Shown piece after piece: positions 56,739 through 64,000 of a stretch of 64,000 nt of DNA (positions are counted from its first letter, which is position 1; each line of letters opens with the position of its first letter). Below the pieces are notes generated by a model. It saw nothing but the letters and a program-made list of their open reading frames with translations, did no database searches and was not told where the DNA came from. Position numbers and translations under genes: made by a program. Source of the stretch: Candidatus Nanohaloarchaea archaeon (lineage in GTDB: Archaea; Nanohalarchaeota; Nanosalinia; Nanosalinales; Nanosalinaceae); assembly GCA_042218325.1 (NCBI GenBank), contig JBDGRE010000001.1, positions 36,356 through 100,355 of the forward strand, in the 5' to 3' direction.

Positions 56739-57351
56739 CTTTTACCTCCTCCTTCATCTGAGCCACGAAATCCTCCACGAACCTGTGGCGCTCCTCCGCC
56801 ATCTCCTTGCCTGTTCCTGTATACATCCTTTCCTTCAGCGACAGTATCTTGTTCGTCAGGTGTTTCAGTCCCGTCTCGCGACCCAGATCCTCCCCGTGCA
56901 TCCTCTCGATGTCGGCCAGCGCCCTGCCGTGTTCCCCGCTGTAGCAGAAAGTCCTCGCTACACCGGTCGCGCCGAGCGCGTCGAGGTTGTCCGCGTCTGA
57001 AAGAACTTCGGCTTCGACTGTCTCCGGCTCGACATCTCCGGAGTAACGGTGCGCCAGTATGCAGTGCATGACCTCCTCCACGACCTCTTCGCTGTACCCG
57101 TTGCTCCCGAGTATATCCGTTGCTTCCCGGGCTCCCCATCTTGCGTGGTCTTCTATCTCTCCACGGTCCTCTTTCCCTCTTCCTATATCGTGAAGCAGTA
57201 CTGCGAGCTTCACCACCTTCCAGTCGGCGTCTTCCTCTTCCGCGATTCTCTCGGCCAGTATCTCCACACGTTTCACGTGGTGCCAGTCGTGGGAGGAATC
57301 CACGCCGTCGAAGTACTTTCTCGCCTCCCGCCGTACCTGGTCTACTTCCAC
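56728..57351 (-). CDS. HD-domain phosphohydrolase
   Basis: SHDWHHVKRV, LLHDIG, DH, AHR, DADNLDALGATG. Confidence 0.9.
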   Translation of the reverse strand: MEVDQVRREARKYFDGVDSSHDWHHVKRVEILAERIAEEEDADWKVVKLAVLLHDIGRGKEDRGEIEDHARWGAREATDILGSNGYSEEVVEEVMHCILAHRYSGDVEPETVEAEVLSDADNLDALGATGVARTFCYSGEHGRALADIERMHGEDLGRETGLKHLTNKILSLKERMYTGTGKEMAEERHRFVEDFVAQMKEEVKGER

Positions 57352-58316
57352 TCTATATCTACCTCGTCAGGCCTCCAGTTCGGTTTCTTCCCCGATTCCT
57401 CGACGGAGGTTTTCCGGCCCGCTTCGAGTTCGAGCATGCCCTGGTGCGCTATCATCGCGCCGTTGTCCATGCAGTAATCGGGCGGCGGGAAGTACGCCTC
57501 GCAACCTCTTTGCTCGCACATCGCCTCCACCATCTCGCGCAGCCTGGAGTTCATCGCGACGCCGCCCGTTAAAAGCGCCTCCCGGGAGCCTTCCTGCGCC
57601 ATCGCCCTCTCCAGGGCCTCGACCACCGCGGCGTAAGCGTGCTCCTGGAACGAGTTGGCTATCAAAGCGTCATCGATTTCGTCGACCTTGCGCTCGCCTT
57701 CTGTTACCAGCCCGGAGAAAGAGAAGTCCATCCCCTTGATAGGGTAGCTGAGTTCGACTATCCCGTCCGTCTTCTCGGCGAGTCTCTCGATTTCGGGGCC
57801 TCCCGGATGCGGGTAGCCGAGCTTCCGCGCCAGCTTGTCGAGCGCGTTACCCAGCGCGATATCCAGGGTCTCCCCGATTATGCGGTAACGACCGGAGCGC
57901 AGCTCAAGTATCTGCGAGTTGCCGCCGGACAGGTACAGTGTGGTCGGTTCCTCCGCACCGGTGGTCCTCGTCCCGATCGAGATGTGTGCAAGGCAGTGGT
58001 TCATACCGATGAGCTCCAGGTCGTACCGTTCGGAAAGCGCACGGGCGATAACCGCCCCGATATCGAGGCACTGCGGTATACCCGGGCCCTGCGCAAAGGC
58101 CACCGCGTCGAGCTCCTCTTCATCTAGGTCTGCCTCCTGCAGTGCGTTGTTCAGGACCTCGAGAGCATGTTGATAGTGGTGCTCCGCCGCCTTCCTCGGG
58201 TGTATCCCGCCCTCCTCCGGCTCGAACATCGACTTCTGGTTTGCAAGTATATCATCTTCGTCGACTATACCGATGCCAAGCGTGTGCGCTGTCGACTCGA
58301 TGCCGAGCACTTTCAT
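57342..58316 (-). CDS. kae1: tRNA N6-threonylcarbamoyltransferase Kae1 (KEOPS), unfused
   Basis: LGIESTAH, GGIHP, NHCLAH, SGGNSQ, GETLDIALGN, TGGVAMN, DNGAMIA. Confidence 0.96.
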   Translation of the reverse strand: MKVLGIESTAHTLGIGIVDEDDILANQKSMFEPEEGGIHPRKAAEHHYQHALEVLNNALQEADLDEEELDAVAFAQGPGIPQCLDIGAVIARALSERYDLELIGMNHCLAHISIGTRTTGAEEPTTLYLSGGNSQILELRSGRYRIIGETLDIALGNALDKLARKLGYPHPGGPEIERLAEKTDGIVELSYPIKGMDFSFSGLVTEGERKVDEIDDALIANSFQEHAYAAVVEALERAMAQEGSREALLTGGVAMNSRLREMVEAMCEQRGCEAYFPPPDYCMDNGAMIAHQGMLELEAGRKTSVEESGKKPNWRPDEVDIEWK

Positions 58317-58352
58317 GCGTGGAGTTAGCTGCTGAAGAATTAAAAGAGAATT

Positions 58353-58502
58353 CTATCCGTGCTTGGTGTAGCCGCACTTGCCGCACGACTTGCGTTCGTC
58401 GTGCTCCGCCAGGAAGCTTCCGCAGCGGGGGCATTTCTCGCCGTCGTATTCTCCTGACTCGTCGTACTTCTCCCAGATCTGTACCTTGTCGTGCTTACTC
58501 AC
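58353..58502 (-). CDS. rps27ae: 30S ribosomal protein S27ae (eS31), 49 aa, not in the ORF track
   Basis: Hand translation: [49 protein letters not shown]; CPRCG..CGKCGYT zinc ribbon upstream of kae1. Confidence 0.92.
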
Positions 58503-58551
58503 GGCTACCACCTGTGGTTGGCGTGTCAAGAAGATCTCTGATCTTTGCCAT
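58495..58551 (-). other. Double-hairpin mini-ORF (18 aa) bridging the rps3 stop and the rps27ae GTG
   Basis: TGATG overlap; [18 protein letters not shown]; palindromes AAGATC-AGA-GATCTT and ACCAC-AG-GTGGT. Confidence 0.5.
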
Positions 58552-59657
58552 CATTCTTCAACCCTCGTTTCCAGCCAGTCGATGAACGTCGTCCGGCTCT
58601 TGTTGTCCTTTTCAGCTTTGAGGGCTTTCTCCCAGTCAGGGTTTTCGAGGTCTTCCAGCTCGTCCTTCGCATCGGCGATAGTGCCGGAGACTATCTCTTC
58701 GTAGTCCGCTTCAGTTCCGCCTTCTGATCCCTCGGCGTCGTCCTCCACTGCTTCCTCGTCGATTCCCGACTCGGACTCGGTGGATTCCTTTTCTACGTCT
58801 TCGGGGACTTCTTCATCCTCCTCGTTTTCTTCAGCTTCCTGTTCTTCCTTGGCCTCTTCTTCTGCGGCTTCCTTTATCTCTTCGCCGCGCTCCTCGAACA
58901 CGTCGCGGATCTCCTGCTTGGTGATATCTTCTGTTTCGACCTCGAGCTCTTCCATTGCCTCGTCGATGGCGGAGGAGGTCATGCTTTCGGCCTCCGCGAC
59001 CACCATCTCGAGTCTCTCGTCTCTTGGAAGTGAGTCCTCGTGCTCGACTGTCTTGTGGAGTATCTCTTCCTCTACGTCGACGTCGCGGTGCTTGAATTCG
59101 GGCAAGGATTCCATGATGCGGACCTTGACACCGATAGCGCCCGGCTTGGTTCTCGCAAGTTCGTAGGCCTCCTTGACGTTTTCCTTCGATGTGTTGCCGT
59201 TTCGCTTGACGTACCCGTACGAGAACTTCTCCGTCCTTCCACGGTTTCCTGAGAGCTTGCCGGCTACCTCTATCTCGGCGCCGATGACTCCGGCTTCCTT
59301 CACCCTTCGCAGGTAGGTGTAACCGACACGTTTCGGCTGTCCTCCCTTCTCGAGCCAGTCAGCCATCGACTTCGCGACGACTTCCGCGTCTGCGTCGGCG
59401 TTCTCTATCTCGTTTACCTCTATCTGCGGGTTCTCGAATCCGAACTCTGCCTCCATGTCCTCTGTGAGTTCACGGATGCGTGAGCCGCCTCGACCGATTA
59501 CAAGTCCTGGTCTCTGTGCGTATACAACTATCTTCGTCGAGGTCGGTGTCCTTACAAGCTCGCACCGCGAGTAGCCTGCTCCCTCGAGCTCTTCCTCGAA
59601 GAACTCGTGCAGCCTTACCTTCCGGGCTCCTTTCTCGACGAACTGTTTCTCCTGCAT
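58551..59657 (-). CDS. rps3: 30S ribosomal protein S3 with long acidic C-terminal extension
   Basis: RPGLVIGRGG KH domain, GAEIEVAGKL, KPGAIGVKVRIM, then about 180 aa of extension. Confidence 0.95.
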   Translation of the reverse strand: MQEKQFVEKGARKVRLHEFFEEELEGAGYSRCELVRTPTSTKIVVYAQRPGLVIGRGGSRIRELTEDMEAEFGFENPQIEVNEIENADADAEVVAKSMADWLEKGGQPKRVGYTYLRRVKEAGVIGAEIEVAGKLSGNRGRTEKFSYGYVKRNGNTSKENVKEAYELARTKPGAIGVKVRIMESLPEFKHRDVDVEEEILHKTVEHEDSLPRDERLEMVVAEAESMTSSAIDEAMEELEVETEDITKQEIRDVFEERGEEIKEAAEEEAKEEQEAEENEEDEEVPEDVEKESTESESGIDEEAVEDDAEGSEGGTEADYEEIVSGTIADAKDELEDLENPDWEKALKAEKDNKSRTTFIDWLETRVEE

Positions 59658-59676
59658 GAAACTTCTGGAAGTTTCA

Positions 59677-59745
59677 TCACCATAGCACGTCCAGCCTGAC
59701 GGCTGAACGCACTCCGGTTTTAAGTTGGTTTTTATTTCCTGCCAT
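59677..59745 (-). other. Mini-ORF (22 aa) and two hairpins in the rpl22-rps3 spacer
   Basis: MAGNKNQLKTGVRSAVRLDVLW*; hairpins CGTTCAGCC-GTCA-GGCTGGACG and ATGAAACTTC-CA-GAAGTTTCAT, the second overlapping the rps3 ATG. Confidence 0.45.
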
Positions 59746-59746
59746 A

Positions 59747-60160
59747 TTATCTCTCTCCCACGACAATCTTTACATGTGCTGCTTTGATGGTTTCTCCCCT
59801 GTGTCTTCCTGGGGTCCTGAACTCTTGGCCCTGGTTGGTTATGAACTTCTGGATTTCCAGCGCGTCAGTATTGAGTCCCTGGTCCTCTGCGTTGGACGCA
59901 GCGCTCCTGATTACTTTCAGTACTTCTTCCGCGGCTTTGACCGGGTAGCGGCCCTCCTGTCCGCCGCTCCTGTGTCCGGCTCCGGAGAACGTCGTGTATG
60001 GTACGGGAAGTTCTTTTTCAATCACTCTTTCCAGCTTGTTCTCCGCCTTCTCGACGGAGTCGCCCTTGACGAAGCGGCCTATCTCGGTCACGTCCTTCCA
60101 CGAAACGCGGAGGTCGTTGCCTATGGCTTTGGCCTGGTGTGGCTCCGTCTCGATAGGCAC
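59747..60160 (-). CDS. rpl22: 50S ribosomal protein L22
   Basis: RVSWK...EI, GRYPVKAA, A.SNAE, HVKIV. Confidence 0.93.
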   Translation of the reverse strand: MPIETEPHQAKAIGNDLRVSWKDVTEIGRFVKGDSVEKAENKLERVIEKELPVPYTTFSGAGHRSGGQEGRYPVKAAEEVLKVIRSAASNAEDQGLNTDALEIQKFITNQGQEFRTPGRHRGETIKAAHVKIVVGER

Positions 60161-60166
60161 GCTAAA

Positions 60167-60547
60167 TCACTTGAGCGGCACGTGCTGCGAGGACCGGGTA
60201 GCTCCGAGCCCTGGTGCACTGTGCGATACTTCCTTTCTGGTTTTTGCTAGTTCGCCGAGGTAGTGTCCGAGCATCTCTTTCTCGATATCTACCGGGACGA
60301 AATCCTTGCCGTTGTATACCTGGACGGTCTTGCCGACCATCTTCGGCACTACGATCATCGACCTCATGTGGGTCTTGACCTGGTCTTTCTCCTCGAGGTC
60401 TTCCAGTATCTTTTTCTCCTTTCTTCTCAGTCCGCGCTGTATCTTTCTCCTGCCTCTTGAGTTGAGCAGCTCCGAGAACTCTTCCAGACTCATCTCTTTC
60501 AGCTCTTCAAGGCTGTGTCCGCGGAAGCTCCAGTCGTCGTCACTCAC
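60167..60547 (-). CDS. rps19: 30S ribosomal protein S19
   Basis: FRG.SLEEL, KTHMRSM, VYNGK, EMLGHYLGE, GATRSS..VPLK. Confidence 0.96.
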   Translation of the reverse strand: MSDDDWSFRGHSLEELKEMSLEEFSELLNSRGRRKIQRGLRRKEKKILEDLEEKDQVKTHMRSMIVVPKMVGKTVQVYNGKDFVPVDIEKEMLGHYLGELAKTRKEVSHSAPGLGATRSSQHVPLK

Positions 60548-60603
60548 TCGAAAACACCTCTGGCGTTTTCTGCGAGATTAGAAAATCTTCGATTTTCACT
60601 CAT
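60544..60603 (-). repeat. Start-codon double-hairpin element / 19-aa mini-ORF, copy A (before rps19)
   Basis: MSENRRFSNLAENARGVFE*; hairpins GAAAATC-GAA-GATTTTC and GAAAACGCC-AGA-GGTGTTTTC; paralogue at 62357-62416. Confidence 0.75.
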
Positions 60604-61312
60604 TGTCTGCTGTTCCCTCCTTGTTTCCTGATTTTCGTGCCGCGATGGAGCCTACCTTGCTACCAGGCGAGGCATGCCTCGAGACAGTTTTCGGCTGACC
60701 TGGTTTTGCGGAACCACCGAACGGGTGGTCGACCGCGTTCATGGCGACCGCACGGACGTTCGGGTATTTGTGGCCCTTCGCCTTCATGGCCTTGTGCTTG
60801 TTGCCGGCCTTCACGAACGGCTTGTCCTTTCTTCCGCCGCCCGCGACCTTTCCTACAGTGGCGCGGCATCCTGTATCCAGTTTTTTGAACTCTCCGCTCG
60901 GAAGCTTGATTCTCACGCCGTCCTGCTCGTGGGTCACGACGAAAGCGTAGGTGCCGGATGAACGGACGAGCTGCCCGCCGCTGCTTGGCTGGGTCTCGAT
61001 GTTATGAATCGGGACACCCTCCGGGATCTCTCCTACAGGAAGAACGTTGCCCTCCTCGATTTCCGCGGAGACACCTACCTCTATGGTGTCGCCGACCTGG
61101 AGGTTCTCCGGCGCCAGAACGTTACGTACCTCTTCATCGTCGAAATCGACGACCGCTACCGGTGCGCTTCTCGCAGGGTCGTGTACTATATCTATCACTT
61201 CGCCCGTCGTCTCTGCGTTCCTGTGCTCTACGTCTCCTTTCCCGTGGTGGGAGTTAGCTGTCCACGTGGAGCTTGCTTTTCCTCTTCTCTGCTGTCTCAG
61301 TGGGCTTCCCAT
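60596..61312 (-). CDS. rpl2: 50S ribosomal protein L2
   Basis: QQRRGK, HDPARSAP, LPSG, VRAVAMNAVDHPFGG, PGSKVGSIAAR. Confidence 0.96.
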   Translation of the reverse strand: MGSPLRQQRRGKASSTWTANSHHGKGDVEHRNAETTGEVIDIVHDPARSAPVAVVDFDDEEVRNVLAPENLQVGDTIEVGVSAEIEEGNVLPVGEIPEGVPIHNIETQPSSGGQLVRSSGTYAFVVTHEQDGVRIKLPSGEFKKLDTGCRATVGKVAGGGRKDKPFVKAGNKHKAMKAKGHKYPNVRAVAMNAVDHPFGGSAKPGQPKTVSRHASPGSKVGSIAARKSGNKEGTADNE

Positions 61313-61321
61313 CTTATCACT

Positions 61322-61594
61322 TTAAATCATTCCGAGCTTGGTCGCGACATCCATCGCGTCGTCAGCTTCGGATAGACTAACGAAGGCCTTTTTCTTGGCC
61401 TGTGGTGTTACCATGGTGTTTACTTTTTTAACCTCTACATCGAACAGCGTCTCCACCGCGTCCTGCACCTGGTTCTTGTTCGCGTCGATGTCGACCATCA
61501 GCACGAGCTGGTTGTGCTCGTCGACCTTGTCCATCGACTTCTCCGTCAGGTGCGGGTTCTCGATTATCTCCCAGGCTCTTTCTTCTTCCATCAT
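61322..61594 (-). CDS. rpl23: 50S ribosomal protein L23
   Basis: PHLTEK, ANK.QV..AVE.LFDV.V.KVNT, KKAFV, ATKLG. Confidence 0.95.
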   Translation of the reverse strand: MMEEERAWEIIENPHLTEKSMDKVDEHNQLVLMVDIDANKNQVQDAVETLFDVEVKKVNTMVTPQAKKKAFVSLSEADDAMDVATKLGMI

Positions 61595-61601
61595 CGCCAC
61601 C

Positions 61602-62360
61602 TCAGTCGAGGAAGAGCTCCTCTTCCTCAAGTCTTTCCAGTGCGTCCTCGCTCCAGACCACAAGCCGTCCTGGCTGTGCACCTGGTGCGAGAAGCTCTGC
61701 GTTAAGGTTTTCGACTCTTGCAACTTCTACACCAGCGAGGTTGCTGGCTGCGTCGACCGCGTTGCTTTCGCCGGAGACGACCAGTAGCGGCCCTACCTTC
61801 CGGCGGTACTTCCGGCCGCGGTTCGCTCCTCTTCCGGCACGAATCTTCTTCTCCTTTACTCTCTCGAGCTCGTCTTCGAGGCCGAGCTCCTCGAGCCTAT
61901 CTTTCAGCTCCGTGGTCTTCTCTATCTCCTCGAGGTCGTCGACGAGCGGTAGCTCGCCGTCGTAATCGTGATTTTCGCTGACGAACTTTTCGTGGTTCGA
62001 GGCCGCGATGCCCGACCTGATGGCCTTGCGTCGCTCCTTGTCGTTTATCTCTTCTGTCCAGTCCTTGTCGCTGTCAGGGCCGTGCGCCCTTCTACCGCCC
62101 CGCGTATTCGGGGCCTCTGCGCCCTCCCCGAGCAGTTGCGAGCCGCGGCCCATCATGATCTTCCTCGGGGTCCGGGACTGTCCGCGGCCTTTCTGCGAGC
62201 GGTACGCGTTGTTCCGCTTCTTCCAGCGGGTGACATGCTTCAGGCCCGCTTCTTTGTCGTTCCCGTACGCCTGCCTGTTCTTGGATTGAATCGACAGGAC
62301 GGCGCGCTTCATGATGTCGGGGCGGACACGTTCGTCGAACTGTACCGGTAGGTCTGTCAC
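61602..62360 (-). CDS. rpl4: 50S ribosomal protein L4
   Basis: VRPDIMKRAV, GRGQSRTPR, GGRRAH, INDKERRKA, LLAPGAQPGRL. Confidence 0.95.
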   Translation of the reverse strand: MTDLPVQFDERVRPDIMKRAVLSIQSKNRQAYGNDKEAGLKHVTRWKKRNNAYRSQKGRGQSRTPRKIMMGRGSQLLGEGAEAPNTRGGRRAHGPDSDKDWTEEINDKERRKAIRSGIAASNHEKFVSENHDYDGELPLVDDLEEIEKTTELKDRLEELGLEDELERVKEKKIRAGRGANRGRKYRRKVGPLLVVSGESNAVDAASNLAGVEVARVENLNAELLAPGAQPGRLVVWSEDALERLEEEELFLD

Positions 62361-62416
62361 TCGAAAACACCTCGGGTGTTTTCTACGTGTGCTGAAAATC
62401 TTGTATTTTCGCTCAT
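62357..62416 (-). repeat. Start-codon double-hairpin element / 19-aa mini-ORF, copy B (before rpl4)
   Basis: MSENTRFSAHVENTRGVFE*; hairpins GAAAAT-ACAAG-ATTTTC and GAAAACACC-CGA-GGTGTTTTC. Confidence 0.75.
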
Positions 62417-62423
62417 TTGTTAA

Positions 62424-63392
62424 TCACTTCTCGATGTGTGTTATCTCTGGTTCTCCTGGTTTTTCGTCCTTTCTCAGTGCGGTTCGCAGCCGGACGAGTC
62501 TCTCCGCCGGCCCGGGAACCGAGCCCTTGACGAGTATGTAGTTGGACTTGACTTCGCCGTAGTTCTTGAAGCCTCCCTCGCGCTGGACTTGCTCCGCGTC
62601 TCCGTGGTCAAGTATGCGCTTGTTCAGCTCCGTACGGTTGTTATAACCCTGCTGGCCTGGAAGAGGAACCTTCCACGAGAGCTTGTCAGGGTGCCACGGG
62701 CCGACGTTTCCGGCCTTTCTCCGCTTCTTCTGCGTCTTGTGGCCCAGCTTCCTGATACCGTAGCGCTTTACCGGGCCCTCCACGCCTTTACCTTTCGAGA
62801 CAGCGACTACGTCGCTGTACTCTCCGGGCTCGAAGACGTCGTTGAACTCGATTTCCTTTCCGATCATCTCTTCAGCGTACTCAAGCTGCTCCTCGACTTC
62901 GCCGCCCATCGCCACCTCGAAGTTGGCGGGTTTCTTCTTGCTGAGCCCCGCGCGCTGTGGCTGGGTGTGGACGAGAAGCCGGACTTCCGAAAGCTCGTCG
63001 CTTATCTCTTTGGCGTCCTCGAAGTTATCCATGTTGCCCTCCTTCGGAACGTCGGTGGCTCTTTGAAGTTCCTTCGAGGGCGAATCGGTCCACGCCTCGG
63101 TGAAGACCTGCTTGCCTGAGTTGAGGTCCTCAGTGTAGAAACGCGCGCCGTAAACTCGTAGCGGCGGCGCTTCGAGTATCGTTACCGGTGTCGCCTTCTC
63201 CCGGCCCTCGGTCGCGCCCTCGGTGTCGTCTATCATCAGGACACGGGTCATGCCGACCTTATATCCCCCGAAACCAAGAGGTTTCAACTCGTCGGTCTCC
63301 TCCCATGTATCTATCTCTGGGTAGATCTTCTGCGCTCTTACCTTGGGCTTGAACCCGAGCGAACCGCTTCTTGGTCTGTTAACGTCTGACAT
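62424..63392 (-). CDS. rpl3: 50S ribosomal protein L3
   Basis: PRSGSLGF.P, GYKVGMT, KGKGVEGPVKRYG, GPWHP, PGQQGY.NRTELNK, KGSVPGP. Start MSDVNR follows an AAGGAGGA SD. Confidence 0.96.
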   Translation of the reverse strand: MSDVNRPRSGSLGFKPKVRAQKIYPEIDTWEETDELKPLGFGGYKVGMTRVLMIDDTEGATEGREKATPVTILEAPPLRVYGARFYTEDLNSGKQVFTEAWTDSPSKELQRATDVPKEGNMDNFEDAKEISDELSEVRLLVHTQPQRAGLSKKKPANFEVAMGGEVEEQLEYAEEMIGKEIEFNDVFEPGEYSDVVAVSKGKGVEGPVKRYGIRKLGHKTQKKRRKAGNVGPWHPDKLSWKVPLPGQQGYNNRTELNKRILDHGDAEQVQREGGFKNYGEVKSNYILVKGSVPGPAERLVRLRTALRKDEKPGEPEITHIEK

Positions 63393-63543
63393 ACTGTTAT
63401 CTCCTCCTTTACCTGTTCCAGAGGCCTCGACTGAGGCTTGTCCACCTGACAAATTCGAAACTCCCTTCAGGAGTTTCTGCGAACCCGCAGCTTGATGTTC
63501 CGGGTAGGGTGGTAACTCATCGGTCACAGACAAATCTTATAAA
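63393..63543 (-). promoter_or_regulatory. Promoter and structured 5' leader of the rpl3 operon
   Basis: TTTATAA box near 63537-63543. Hairpins CTGCG-GGTT-CGCAG, GAAACTCC-TGAAG-GGAGTTTC and AGCCTC-AGTC-GAGGC, then the SD. Confidence 0.6.
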
Positions 63544-63606
63544 TGGGTCGAAGACGCTGTTCCCGTTCCTTCCCTCGGCGCTCTTTTATTCGTCAGGTCC
63601 ACAGGT

Positions 63607-64000
63607 ATGCGTATGCTAAAGGCGGAAAACCTGTCGAAGAGCTACGGTGAAACCCGGGCGGTACAAGACCTCAGTTTCCAGGTCGAGAAGGGAGAGATAG
63701 TCGGTCTTATCGGCCCGAACGGTGCAGGCAAGTCGACCACGATGGAGATGTGTGCCGGGCTGCTGCAGCCGGACTCCGGCCGGGTAAAGGCGGAAAGCAG
63801 CCTGAAACAGTGCGTCGGGATCGTATTTCAGTCGCTCGAGATGCGGCCCAAGATAACCGTCGAGGAGTTCCTAGGGCTGATGAAAACGCTGAACAGCTCC
63901 GGCGCCGATATACAGGAAGCGTTGCGGGACGTAGCCCTTGATGAGAGCGATGCATGGGTCGAGGAGCTTTCCGGCGGCCAGAAAAAGAAGCTGAACATCG
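63607..64000 (+). CDS. ABC transporter ATP-binding protein (partial, runs off the window end)
   Basis: Hand translation: LKAENLSKSYG...GEIVGLIGPNGAGKSTT...VFQ...LSGGQKKKLNI. Confidence 0.9.
   Translation, partial: MRMLKAENLSKSYGETRAVQDLSFQVEKGEIVGLIGPNGAGKSTTMEMCAGLLQPDSGRVKAESSLKQCVGIVFQSLEMRPKITVEEFLGLMKTLNSSGADIQEALRDVALDESDAWVEELSGGQKKKLNI

Follow-up and report, generated by a model that had tools for sequence, protein, structure and literature searches.

Introduction

Mycobacterial interspersed repetitive units (MIRUs) are repeats of 40-100 bp, present in 40-50 copies, with filled and empty sites and tetranucleotide direct repeats (PMC3184786). According to reviews of the work of Supply et al. 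(1997), they seem to insert at start codons and contain an internal open reading frame (ORF) coupled at -4 spacing, and their insertion at a start codon disturbs expression of the target gene little (PMC12548453). Here we describe a short double-hairpin element of Nanohaloarchaea, two copies of which (A and B) lie in a ribosomal-protein operon of Candidatus Nanohaloarchaea archaeon (assembly GCA_042218325.1, contig JBDGRE010000001.1, positions 36,356 to 100,355). This stretch of 64,000 nucleotides is referred to as the window, and features given without a contig name are numbered from its first letter.

The element appears to be a new archaeal variant of an already known kind of intercistronic repeat, with MIRUs as its closest known analogue. 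Both are 40-100-bp repeats found in tens of copies per genome, intergenic within polycistrons and co-transcribed or co-oriented with them; in both, ORF ends overlap neighbour genes, and filled and empty orthologous sites occur together with short direct repeats, which are variable here (3 to about 17 nt). An initial annotation of the window knew of no description of such an element in DPANN archaea; a precedent exists in MIRUs, which PMC12548453 describes as start-codon inserts with a coupled ORF. The likeness is one of kind, by description: the two belong to different domains of life, and no sequence homology is expected. Unlike MIRUs, the nanohaloarchaeal element is A/U-rich and has two covarying hairpins that would sequester the Shine-Dalgarno sequence (SD) and start codon; it was seen in occasional composites only, not in tandem arrays of the variable-number type, and has relatives in tRNA genes. 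A literature search on Nanohaloarchaea, with subscription journals and supplementary files outside its reach, returned no description of these elements, and a search for miniature inverted-repeat transposable elements (MITEs) with an SD and translational coupling returned nothing.

Other described systems share single traits with the element. The REP2 repeats of Neisseria and the IR-A and IR-B repeats of Borrelia likewise stand immediately upstream of genes and bring a ribosome-binding site, an ATG and two stem-loops (PMC3184786). They carry a promoter as well, and are not described as bridging two cistrons by a mini-ORF. Overlaps of the ATGA or TGATG type, and an SD/start structure opened by an upstream ribosome, are shared with translational coupling systems (PMC6728339, PMC10666635, PMC12548453). 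What sets the element apart from plain coupling is that its "upstream gene" would be a portable mini-cistron of 15-20 codons, itself coupled upstream, in a two-step relay. Bicistronic designs (BCDs) have a similar short leader cistron with a second SD in its 3' end and a stop beside the next start, and structure is removed by the helicase activity of the ribosome (PMC5995908, bioRxiv 10.1101/2023.02.09.527918). BCDs are engineered, in contrast to the natural, repeated and structured element of Nanohaloarchaea. The original BCD design is reportedly that of Mutalik (2013). Archaeal tRNA genes contain introns with a bulge-helix-bulge (BHB) motif, and transposition of introns among tRNAs is known from the literature on Thermoproteales. 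The tRNA introns of the genome studied here hold hairpin modules of the same type as the element, one D-loop copy having a usable BHB; the mRNA copies, unlike BHB introns, have translation signals and no consistent BHB.

Results

Copies A and B belong to a family of short double-hairpin repeats that is interspersed in genomes across the class Nanohaloarchaea. We compared the assembly that holds the window (G000; 1.07 Mb, 35 contigs, 96% complete) with a congener (G001; proteins ~75-85% identical), with its family f1 (50 genomes) and with its class (70 genomes in families f1-f5). A BLAST search of G000 with copy B located two more full-length copies, on contig C2 before the S4e gene and on contig C23 before the S4 gene; near-full copies found by BLAST or pattern thus number four, against zero for a reversed-pattern control. 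Searches with nhmmer and a hairpin regular expression added more diverged copies before rpoK, the L24e gene, sufU, a phosphodiesterase gene and others. Most copies measure 55-61 nt, and some in G000 are composites of three or four hairpins. The initial annotation had named a covariance-model scan as the means of finding further copies; run here with a model of 11 aligned copies from G000 and five relatives (R1), it found them in G000 and its relatives. R1 has 36 matches in G000 at E ≤ 1, counting both strands, and 23 at E ≤ 0.01. At E ≤ 0.01 it matches 43 of the 50 f1 genomes, with up to 51 matches in one ~1-Mb genome, and at E ≤ 1e-4 it matches 49 of the 70 class genomes in three of the five families (G000 itself, 38 of the 49 other f1 genomes, 4/10 in f3, 6/8 in f4, 0/1 in f2 and 0/1 in f5).

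Scanning window positions 57000-64000 against Rfam (cmscan, E ≤ 5) gave no match at the elements; two weak C/D-box matches elsewhere in that interval were both under the gathering score. Among viral contigs, the hairpin-1 pattern matched three, R1 gave only 18-21 bits, and no virus was shown to be a carrier. Two IMG/VR contigs (L180 and L182) contain an A/U-rich hairpin pair, AAAATTC-AGG-GAATTT ... GAAAATC-AGA-GATTTTC, that scores 18-20 bits with R1.

The operon runs along the minus strand of the window, to which all features of copies A and B refer, in the order rpl3, rpl4, rpl23, rpl2, rps19, rpl22, rps3 and rps27ae, each gene being confirmed by Pfam. Copy A (60544-60603; 60 nt; R1 80 bits, E 2.8e-19) occupies the junction of rpl2 and rps19, and copy B (62357-62416; 60 nt; R1 72.8 bits) precedes the start of rpl4 in the spacer behind the rpl3 stop (62424-62426). 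Both stretches are present letter for letter as first quoted and are 82% identical over 60 nt, in line with the initial description of near-identical elements in two spacers. Each half-pattern, written in degenerate form and allowing up to three mismatches, matches the window exactly twice, compared with 0.00 matches expected from 100 shuffles.

Copy A opens with the ATG (60603-60601) of a mini-ORF, MSENRRFSNLAENARGVFE, which closes at a TGA at 60546-60544; the rpl2 stop (TGA, 60598-60596) falls within the first 8 nt of the copy. Hairpin 1 (60581-60597, GAAAATC-GAA-GATTTTC) has 7 bp and a triloop, and hairpin 2 (60550-60570, GAAAACGCC-AGA-GGTGTTTTC) has 9 bp including one G-U and contains the SD-like GAGGTG at 60555-60560. 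In the minimum free energy (MFE) fold an outer helix joins the linker sequence CUCGC with GUGAG, the GUG start included. Copy B encodes the mini-ORF MSENTRFSAHVENTRGVFE and folds into hairpin 1 (62394-62410, GAAAATA-CAA-GATTTTC; 6 bp plus an A/G mismatch) and hairpin 2 (62363-62383, GAAAACACC-CGA-GGTGTTTTC; 9 bp; fold z -3.21), with GAGGTG at 62368-62373 within hairpin 2. The GTG starts of rps19 (60167-60547; PF00203, 1.3e-26; start 60547-60545) and of rpl4 (61602-62360; PF00573, 1.1e-35; start 62360-62358) overlap the respective mini-ORF stops, as GTGA in the case of rps19; rpl2 (60596-61312; PF03947, 1.4e-42) is the gene upstream of copy A.

These details bear out much of the anatomy first proposed: a 19-codon mini-ORF is found in both copies, the first two letters of its TGA close the GTG of the long ORF, and RNA folding places GGUG in the 3' arm of hairpin 2. 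Removal of 56 nt after ATGA leaves ATGAGTGAC and ATGACAGAC with the protein unchanged, and the TGAGTGA repeat is indeed found around copy A. When five G000 copies were folded with their flanks, both hairpins formed in all five (-16 to -22 kcal/mol; z -1.4 to -3.2).

A consensus drawn from 57 R1 matches in 58 fetched loci consists, in its 5' part, of ATG-nnC, hairpin 1 (GAAAATC-AAA-GATTTTC) and a 10-nt linker (TGGnCAnGCA), and in its 3' part of hairpin 2 (GAAAAtCAC-gGA-GGTGaTTTTc) followed by GAaTGr. Both stems covary: in the 11-copy alignment 8 of 16 pairs have changed on both sides, a level reached by 0 of 500 shuffles, and 91% of cells are paired versus 27-66% when partners are slid by 1-3 columns, figures that, like the G-U and linker counts below, are indications rather than probabilities. 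In 48 copies read on the sense strand, the stems contain 23 G-U and 9 A-C oppositions, an excess that favors RNA structure on the mRNA strand. MFE folds often prolong hairpin 2 by a helix of the linker with the start region, which closes over the start codon. The linker covaries with that codon, CRC (CAC or CGC) accompanying GTG and CAT accompanying ATG. Among 43 copies from relatives, CRC is found within the last 8 linker nucleotides in 8/8 copies with a GTG start, while those with an ATG start have CAT in 13/35, CRC in 6/35 and neither in 16/35; in G000, four GTG-start copies have CRC, and the rpoK copy, with an ATG start, has CAT. An alternative pairing of the ermC type, sought by eye, would join UUUUC of hairpin 1 to GAAAA of hairpin 2 by 5 bp, against 9 bp within hairpin 2.

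We next consider the reading frame that crosses the structure, using 88 copies outside tRNA genes (43 from the relatives' loci, 20 from G000 and 25 from G001). A 5' ATG and a downstream ORF of at least 45 codons in sense orientation are present in 66 of them, and in 56 of these 66 the first stop in the ATG frame falls within -12 to +4 of the downstream start; the same test gives 3/66 in the +1 frame and 18/66 in the +2 frame. The arrangement of mini-ORF, SD and stop/start overlap that had been read from the two window copies is the rule across copies. All three phases between ATG and start are seen, each with its own junction type: NTGA overlaps (21 copies), one-base TAATG or TGATG overlaps (10) and abutting stops (TGAATG, 16). 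Variants of 61 nt gain their in-frame stop through a C-to-T consensus difference (TTTTCGAATGA against TTTTTGAATGG), and the G001 rps19 copy, whose linker is shorter and whose 3' end is longer, each by 1 nt, keeps 20 codons. The stop of the upstream gene lies mostly between -16 and +8 of the element ATG. Most copies stand between co-oriented operon genes, in the orientation of the genes. The peptide is not conserved, some copies being read in another phase relative to hairpin 1 (MKIKDF... versus MSENQRF...), so that selection, if any, would act on translation through the element rather than on its product.

Occupancy of individual junctions is a mosaic. We read the four junctions from rpl3 to rps19, named by their downstream genes, in 23 f1 genomes. 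G000 is filled at L4 and S19, G001 at S19, G006 at L4, L2 and S19, G023 at L4 and L23, G007 at L23, G020 at L2, G022 at S19, and G010 at L4, its rpl2-rps19 spacer (L023) being masked by an N run; the other f1 genomes read have no junction filled. The spacer of copy B is thus filled in G000, G006, G010 and G023, and that of copy A in G000, G001, G006 and G022. Empty-site orthologues with the ATGA starts that the initial annotation had predicted do exist, with ATGAGTGACGAC in G008 and ATGACAGATCTACC or ATGACCGATCTACC in G015, G005 and others; ATGACAGATCTACC exemplifies the empty L4 junction and GATGAGTGACGAC the empty S19 junction. Thirteen G000 copies were resolved in the comparison with G001, where 7 of the sites are empty and 6 have a counterpart of some form, among them a truncated rps13-rps4 remnant and a short S28e-L24e form. 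Conversely, 13 G001 copies face 10 empty sites, 1 masked site and 2 long unrelated spacers in G000. The two congeners therefore have in common about half or fewer of their copies. One of nine 100-nt N runs in G000 (C23:10207-10306) covers a site orthologous to a G001 copy.

Several variants recur at different junctions. In G000, sufS-sufU and S28e-L24e have in common a composite of ~84 nt and three hairpins, differing mainly in its loops; G001 has nothing at sufS-sufU and lacks the inner 51 nt at S28e-L24e. Near-identical variants with the same unusual linker lie at different junctions of different genera, for example before rps19 in G022 and rpl23 in G023 (0.88 identity), or before rpl2 in G006 and rpl23 in G007. 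Together with the mosaic occupancy, these variants shared by non-orthologous junctions point to copying from site to site. Bursts or concerted evolution within genomes are unsupported, the mean identity within a genome being 0.66; since same-genome pairs are no more alike than pairs between genomes, there is no sign of a recent burst, and some junctions look vertically inherited. We conclude that the family is old, partly vertical, repeatedly gained and lost, and under sequence constraint. We consider it evolutionarily mobile, mobility as a process being inferred from these comparisons.

Contigs from four salt-lake DNA runs include none that bridges an empty site. In the same runs, the summed depth is raised several-fold in the bins that hold elements (window 60408-60775 and 62248-62431), and contigs break or diverge at the element borders, with loose ends at 60543, 60598, 62353-62357 and 62384-62389. 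Such depth and breaks are what a repeat common to many organisms of the sample should produce; we read them as a multi-copy repeat in those metagenomes and not as evidence on mobility. Two other kinds of spacer were seen at these junctions. The rpl2-rps19 junction of G011 (L026) has a 328-nt insert with an ORF of ~100 codons (MNEIKLEAANEDFYDILG...), and at rpl3-rpl4 of loci L033-L039 (f3 and f4) the 50-67 nt that look like a gap ahead of the conserved L4 start are coding sequence: in these families an N-terminal extension of L4 by ~15-18 residues takes the place of the element.

The placement in start codons that had been proposed for the pair holds for most copies, which lie at gene starts; others occur in a leader, in antisense 3' regions, in an msrA-like ORF and in tRNA genes, and the prevalence at start codons may reflect survival there as well as targeting. 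The msrA-like ORF of G000 has a copy in its 3' end (C16:18323-18380), antisense to the better strand of R1; the ORF reads through the element in frame, and its PMSR domain ends at residue 194 of 251. Two 3'-region copies are oriented opposite to their neighbors, one directly behind a chaperonin-like gene with GGM repeats at its end (G000:C2:52691-52748) and one between a small gene and a TATA-like box upstream of rps13 (G000:C23:6125-6191). Excluding those in N runs, G000 has 576 perfect 7-bp hairpins. The commonest class by a wide margin starts with GAAA and numbers 38, of which 32 are located outside a crude ORF set that covers 89% of the genome.

Similar hairpins are found in tRNA genes. 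ARAGORN predicts introns of 12-139 nt made of such hairpins in 21 of 31 tRNA genes, with GAAA..TTTC stems and 10-nt linkers ending in GCA. The one tRNA-Gly(GCC) seen, which ARAGORN did not call, has a 59-nt double hairpin in its D-loop in both congeners (G000:C16:5972-6034 and G001:C1:41477-41526, both minus strand), flanked in both by the 8-nt direct repeat GTGGCTAA, with compensatory changes in the second hairpin. Excision at a relaxed BHB would take out exactly 59 nt and restore a normal tRNA.

Further tRNA loci of G000 have unusual repeats. The genes for tRNA-Met (C1:107120-107216), tRNA-Ala(GGC) (C31:77310-77400) and tRNA-Tyr (C1:201650-201753), all on the minus strand, are each followed by a 46-67-nt spacer with a GAAAA..TTTTC hairpin and an inverted T-loop copy, and then by 22-23 nt that duplicate the 3' end of the same tRNA; these trailing repeats could be an integration remnant or a trailer structure. 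A double hairpin precedes a tRNA-Ser/Leu-like gene (C23:1885-1960, plus strand), where a flanking 9-nt direct repeat (GCCGGGATG) duplicates the tRNA 5' end. Two tRNA-like genes that ARAGORN did not call (C5:62650-62760, plus strand; C16:56260-56360, minus strand) have an apparent double hairpin between the 5' strand of the T-stem and the T-loop.

Discussion

We consider it probable that copies A and B represent an interspersed, evolutionarily mobile element between cistrons, in which the mini-ORF and a hairpin that sequesters SD and start keep the neighboring genes translationally coupled. A translational relay is the mechanism we favor with reasonable confidence, every step of it being deduced from the anatomy described above. 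Elements at two-gene junctions are presumably transcribed with the operon in sense orientation. A ribosome that ends the upstream gene would restart at the element ATG, which is the former start codon or lies a few nucleotides from the upstream stop, and would translate the mini-ORF of 15-20 codons across hairpin 1, the linker and the 5' arm of hairpin 2. This would melt hairpin 2 and the helix between linker and start codon, freeing the SD and start of the next gene; termination at the overlapping or abutting stop (NTGA, TAATG or TGAATG) would then be followed by re-initiation on that gene. Termination-reinitiation coupling in archaea and bacteria is described as requiring overlaps or very short distances (PMC10666635, PMC6728339), and structured ribosome-binding sites as openable by upstream translation (PMC12548453). 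The element has this layout: stop and start overlap or abut, and SD and start lie inside a structure crossed by the mini-ORF. Coupling would thus be kept despite ~60 extra bases, which is probably why the element is tolerated at junctions. A role specific to ribosomal proteins, as first suggested for the pair, does not fit copies that precede sufU, the phosphodiesterase gene and rpoK, and for a tuning of ribosomal-protein stoichiometry we found no evidence.

Such a relay would let a compact genome of 1 Mb take up a repeat while its operons stay intact. By bringing a ribosome-binding site, a start codon and a bridging mini-ORF, the element would be a natural counterpart of the synthetic bicistronic designs, and its many covarying examples bear on the open question of archaeal translational coupling. 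The high turnover between congeners may also make it a strain-typing marker for Nanohaloarchaea, as MIRUs are in mycobacteria.

A number of observations count against this interpretation or limit it. Mean identity is 0.66 for pairs from the same genome (n = 187), 0.70 for pairs from different genomes (n = 2124) and 0.77 for pairs at the same junction (n = 35), a pattern equally compatible with an element kept by the host and with a mobile one. Filled sites are flanked by direct repeats of 3 to about 17 nt, which show no target duplication of fixed length, and no transposase could be linked to the element, Y1 being the one family searched. The architecture is not universal, as 22 of the 88 copies misfit (10 without a 5' ATG, 7 without a downstream ORF in sense orientation and 5 without a start found). 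The open frame is partly compositional, because the words of which the element is made (GAAAA, TTTTC) supply few stop triplets, and the +2 frame, too, ends at the start in 18 of 66 copies. With related copies and an R1 alignment fitted to the structure, covariation and counts overstate independence. One 11-nt motif for the archaeal 16S 3' end gave no match in the metagenome-assembled genome G000; the assignment of GGTG(A) as SD therefore draws on the general archaeal 16S 3' end and on the recurrence of GGTG(A) ahead of gene starts where the junction is empty. That the element is transcribed and not excised, that its mini-ORF is translated and that the genes are coupled are all deductions from sequence.

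The alternative that shares most with the relay is a cis-regulator selected by the host, in which the strongly conserved hairpin 1 (GAAAAUC-AAA-GAUUUUC) would bind a protein and so control many genes of translation and transcription together, with the mini-ORF and hairpin 2 as the expression platform, and patchiness would reflect junctions recruited to or lost from the regulon. The two ideas overlap and differ in why the element is kept. A regulator would account for a consensus held over three families of the class, for pairwise identities of ~0.70 between genera whose L4 proteins are only 60-75% identical, and for same-junction copies that persist across genera (before rps3, rps27e, spt4-like and rps24e-like genes). 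Many downstream genes encode ribosomal proteins, RNA polymerase subunits and translation factors (in G000 they include S19, L4, S4e, S4, S27ae, L24e and RpoK), and the Y1 search linked no transposase to the element. The protein that would bind hairpin 1 is, however, purely hypothetical, and copies also lie before sufU, the phosphodiesterase gene and others, in 3' regions and in tRNA genes. Most junctions differ between the two congeners, a rapid turnover for a regulon, and 7 of the 50 family genomes have no match at E ≤ 0.01. Hairpins can be lost, as in the rps13-rps4 remnant of G001, of which the SD, the start and a 9-codon ORF are all that is left. On balance we regard host regulation as a credible but doubtful explanation of the family. 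That the element is an intron at the RNA level, 56 nt being cut out of the mRNA by the tRNA-splicing endonuclease at a BHB so as to restore an ATG-started gene, appears very improbable. The usable relaxed BHB of the tRNA-Gly(GCC) double hairpin in G000 and G001, the 21 of 31 tRNA genes with predicted introns of similar hairpins and the unchanged protein after removal of 56 nt would agree with it. Our BHB scan was home-made and permissive, recovering 14 (relaxed) or 3 (strict) of the 21 ARAGORN intron positions; it found an element-spanning BHB in 24 mRNA copies and in 27 chimeric controls, out of 41 each, at no recurrent position, and none in copy B or in copy C. As the motif is no commoner than in the controls, BHB splicing of the mRNA copies was rejected; a conserved mini-ORF frame, a stop at the start and an internal SD would, moreover, be pointless in a segment that is excised.

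The tRNA copies are the basis of a further reading, which we hold to be unlikely: a single family of hairpin modules at two kinds of site, a spliced BHB intron in tRNA genes and a translated mini-cistron in operons. The start-codon elements would then be escaped intron-like modules in which translation signals replace splice sites, and the host may use hairpin 1 as a common handle on translation genes. Such a link, if real, bears on the spread of archaeal introns. Derivation from an IS200/IS605 element, in the manner of repetitive extragenic palindromes (REPs) or palindrome-associated transposable elements (PATEs), would make the hairpins the ends recognized by a Y1 (TnpA/RAYT) transposase inserting beside NTGA. 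The two subterminal hairpins, the orientation-specific insertion and a tetranucleotide-like repeat around many copies (ATGA ... GTGA/ATGA/CTGA) point that way, but the Y1 domain PF01797 was not found in G000, although control genomes gave matches. It occurs in 2 of the 50 family genomes, both of one genus, whereas the element occurs in 43, and the flanking repeats are no constant tetranucleotide. We therefore rejected this origin as a general explanation on the rarity of Y1 and give it hardly any credence. Compared with MITEs, the element has inverted ends (GAAAA/TTTTC), as any hairpin has, and direct repeats without a fixed length. Finally, chance or a purely local duplication in one ribosomal-protein operon has nothing in its favor beyond the two copies first noted; with copies on other contigs of G000 and in 48 other class genomes, and a chance expectation of 0.00 in the window, it is refuted and its probability is negligible.

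Additional Observations

The window contains more divergent copies, all on the minus strand. A weak, diverged copy lies in the rpl3 leader (63451-63520; R1 27.8 bits, E 2.6e-4), with an ATG, a 17-codon ORF and the hairpin GAAACTCC-TGAA-GGGAGTTTC. A degenerate copy between rps3 and rps27ae (58495-58551; R1 23.3 bits, E 0.005) has a mini-ORF, the hairpin AAGATC-AGA-GATCTT and GGTGGT; its TAA overlaps the GTG start at 58502-58500, and G001 has a counterpart. The 89-nt spacer between rpl22 and rps3 (59658-59746) is unrecognised by R1. It contains a 22-codon mini-ORF (MAGNKNQLKTGVRSAVRLDVLW) ending in GGTGA, followed by the hairpin GAAACTTC-CA-GAAGTTTC that abuts the rps3 ATG, and is possibly a diverged relative of the element.

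Two ribosomal proteins of G000, S3 (368 aa; window 58551-58680, minus strand) and L24 (245 aa; C2:3090-3220, minus strand), have long acidic C-terminal extensions. The last ~40 residues of these tails are homologous (...DAKDELEDLENPDWEKALKAEKDNKSRTTFIDWLE...), with ~78% DNA identity, and both proteins are tailed in G001 too. Joint movement of tail and element was rejected, since G001 has both tails and an empty rpl24-rps4e junction.

Gene starts beside elements are easily miscalled, which matters for annotation. For rps27ae and rpl23 of the window, the longest ORF opens with a TTG that lies upstream of the start next to the element. The rpl3 gene (62424-63392, minus strand) likely begins at the ATG at 63392-63390, behind GGAGG; its listed ORF extends to a TTG at 63533, 47 codons further upstream, and the L3 domain starts at residue 49 of this long ORF, with relatives aligning from residue 35-48. 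The extra stretch of the ORF (63393-63533, minus strand) overlaps the leader copy of the element.

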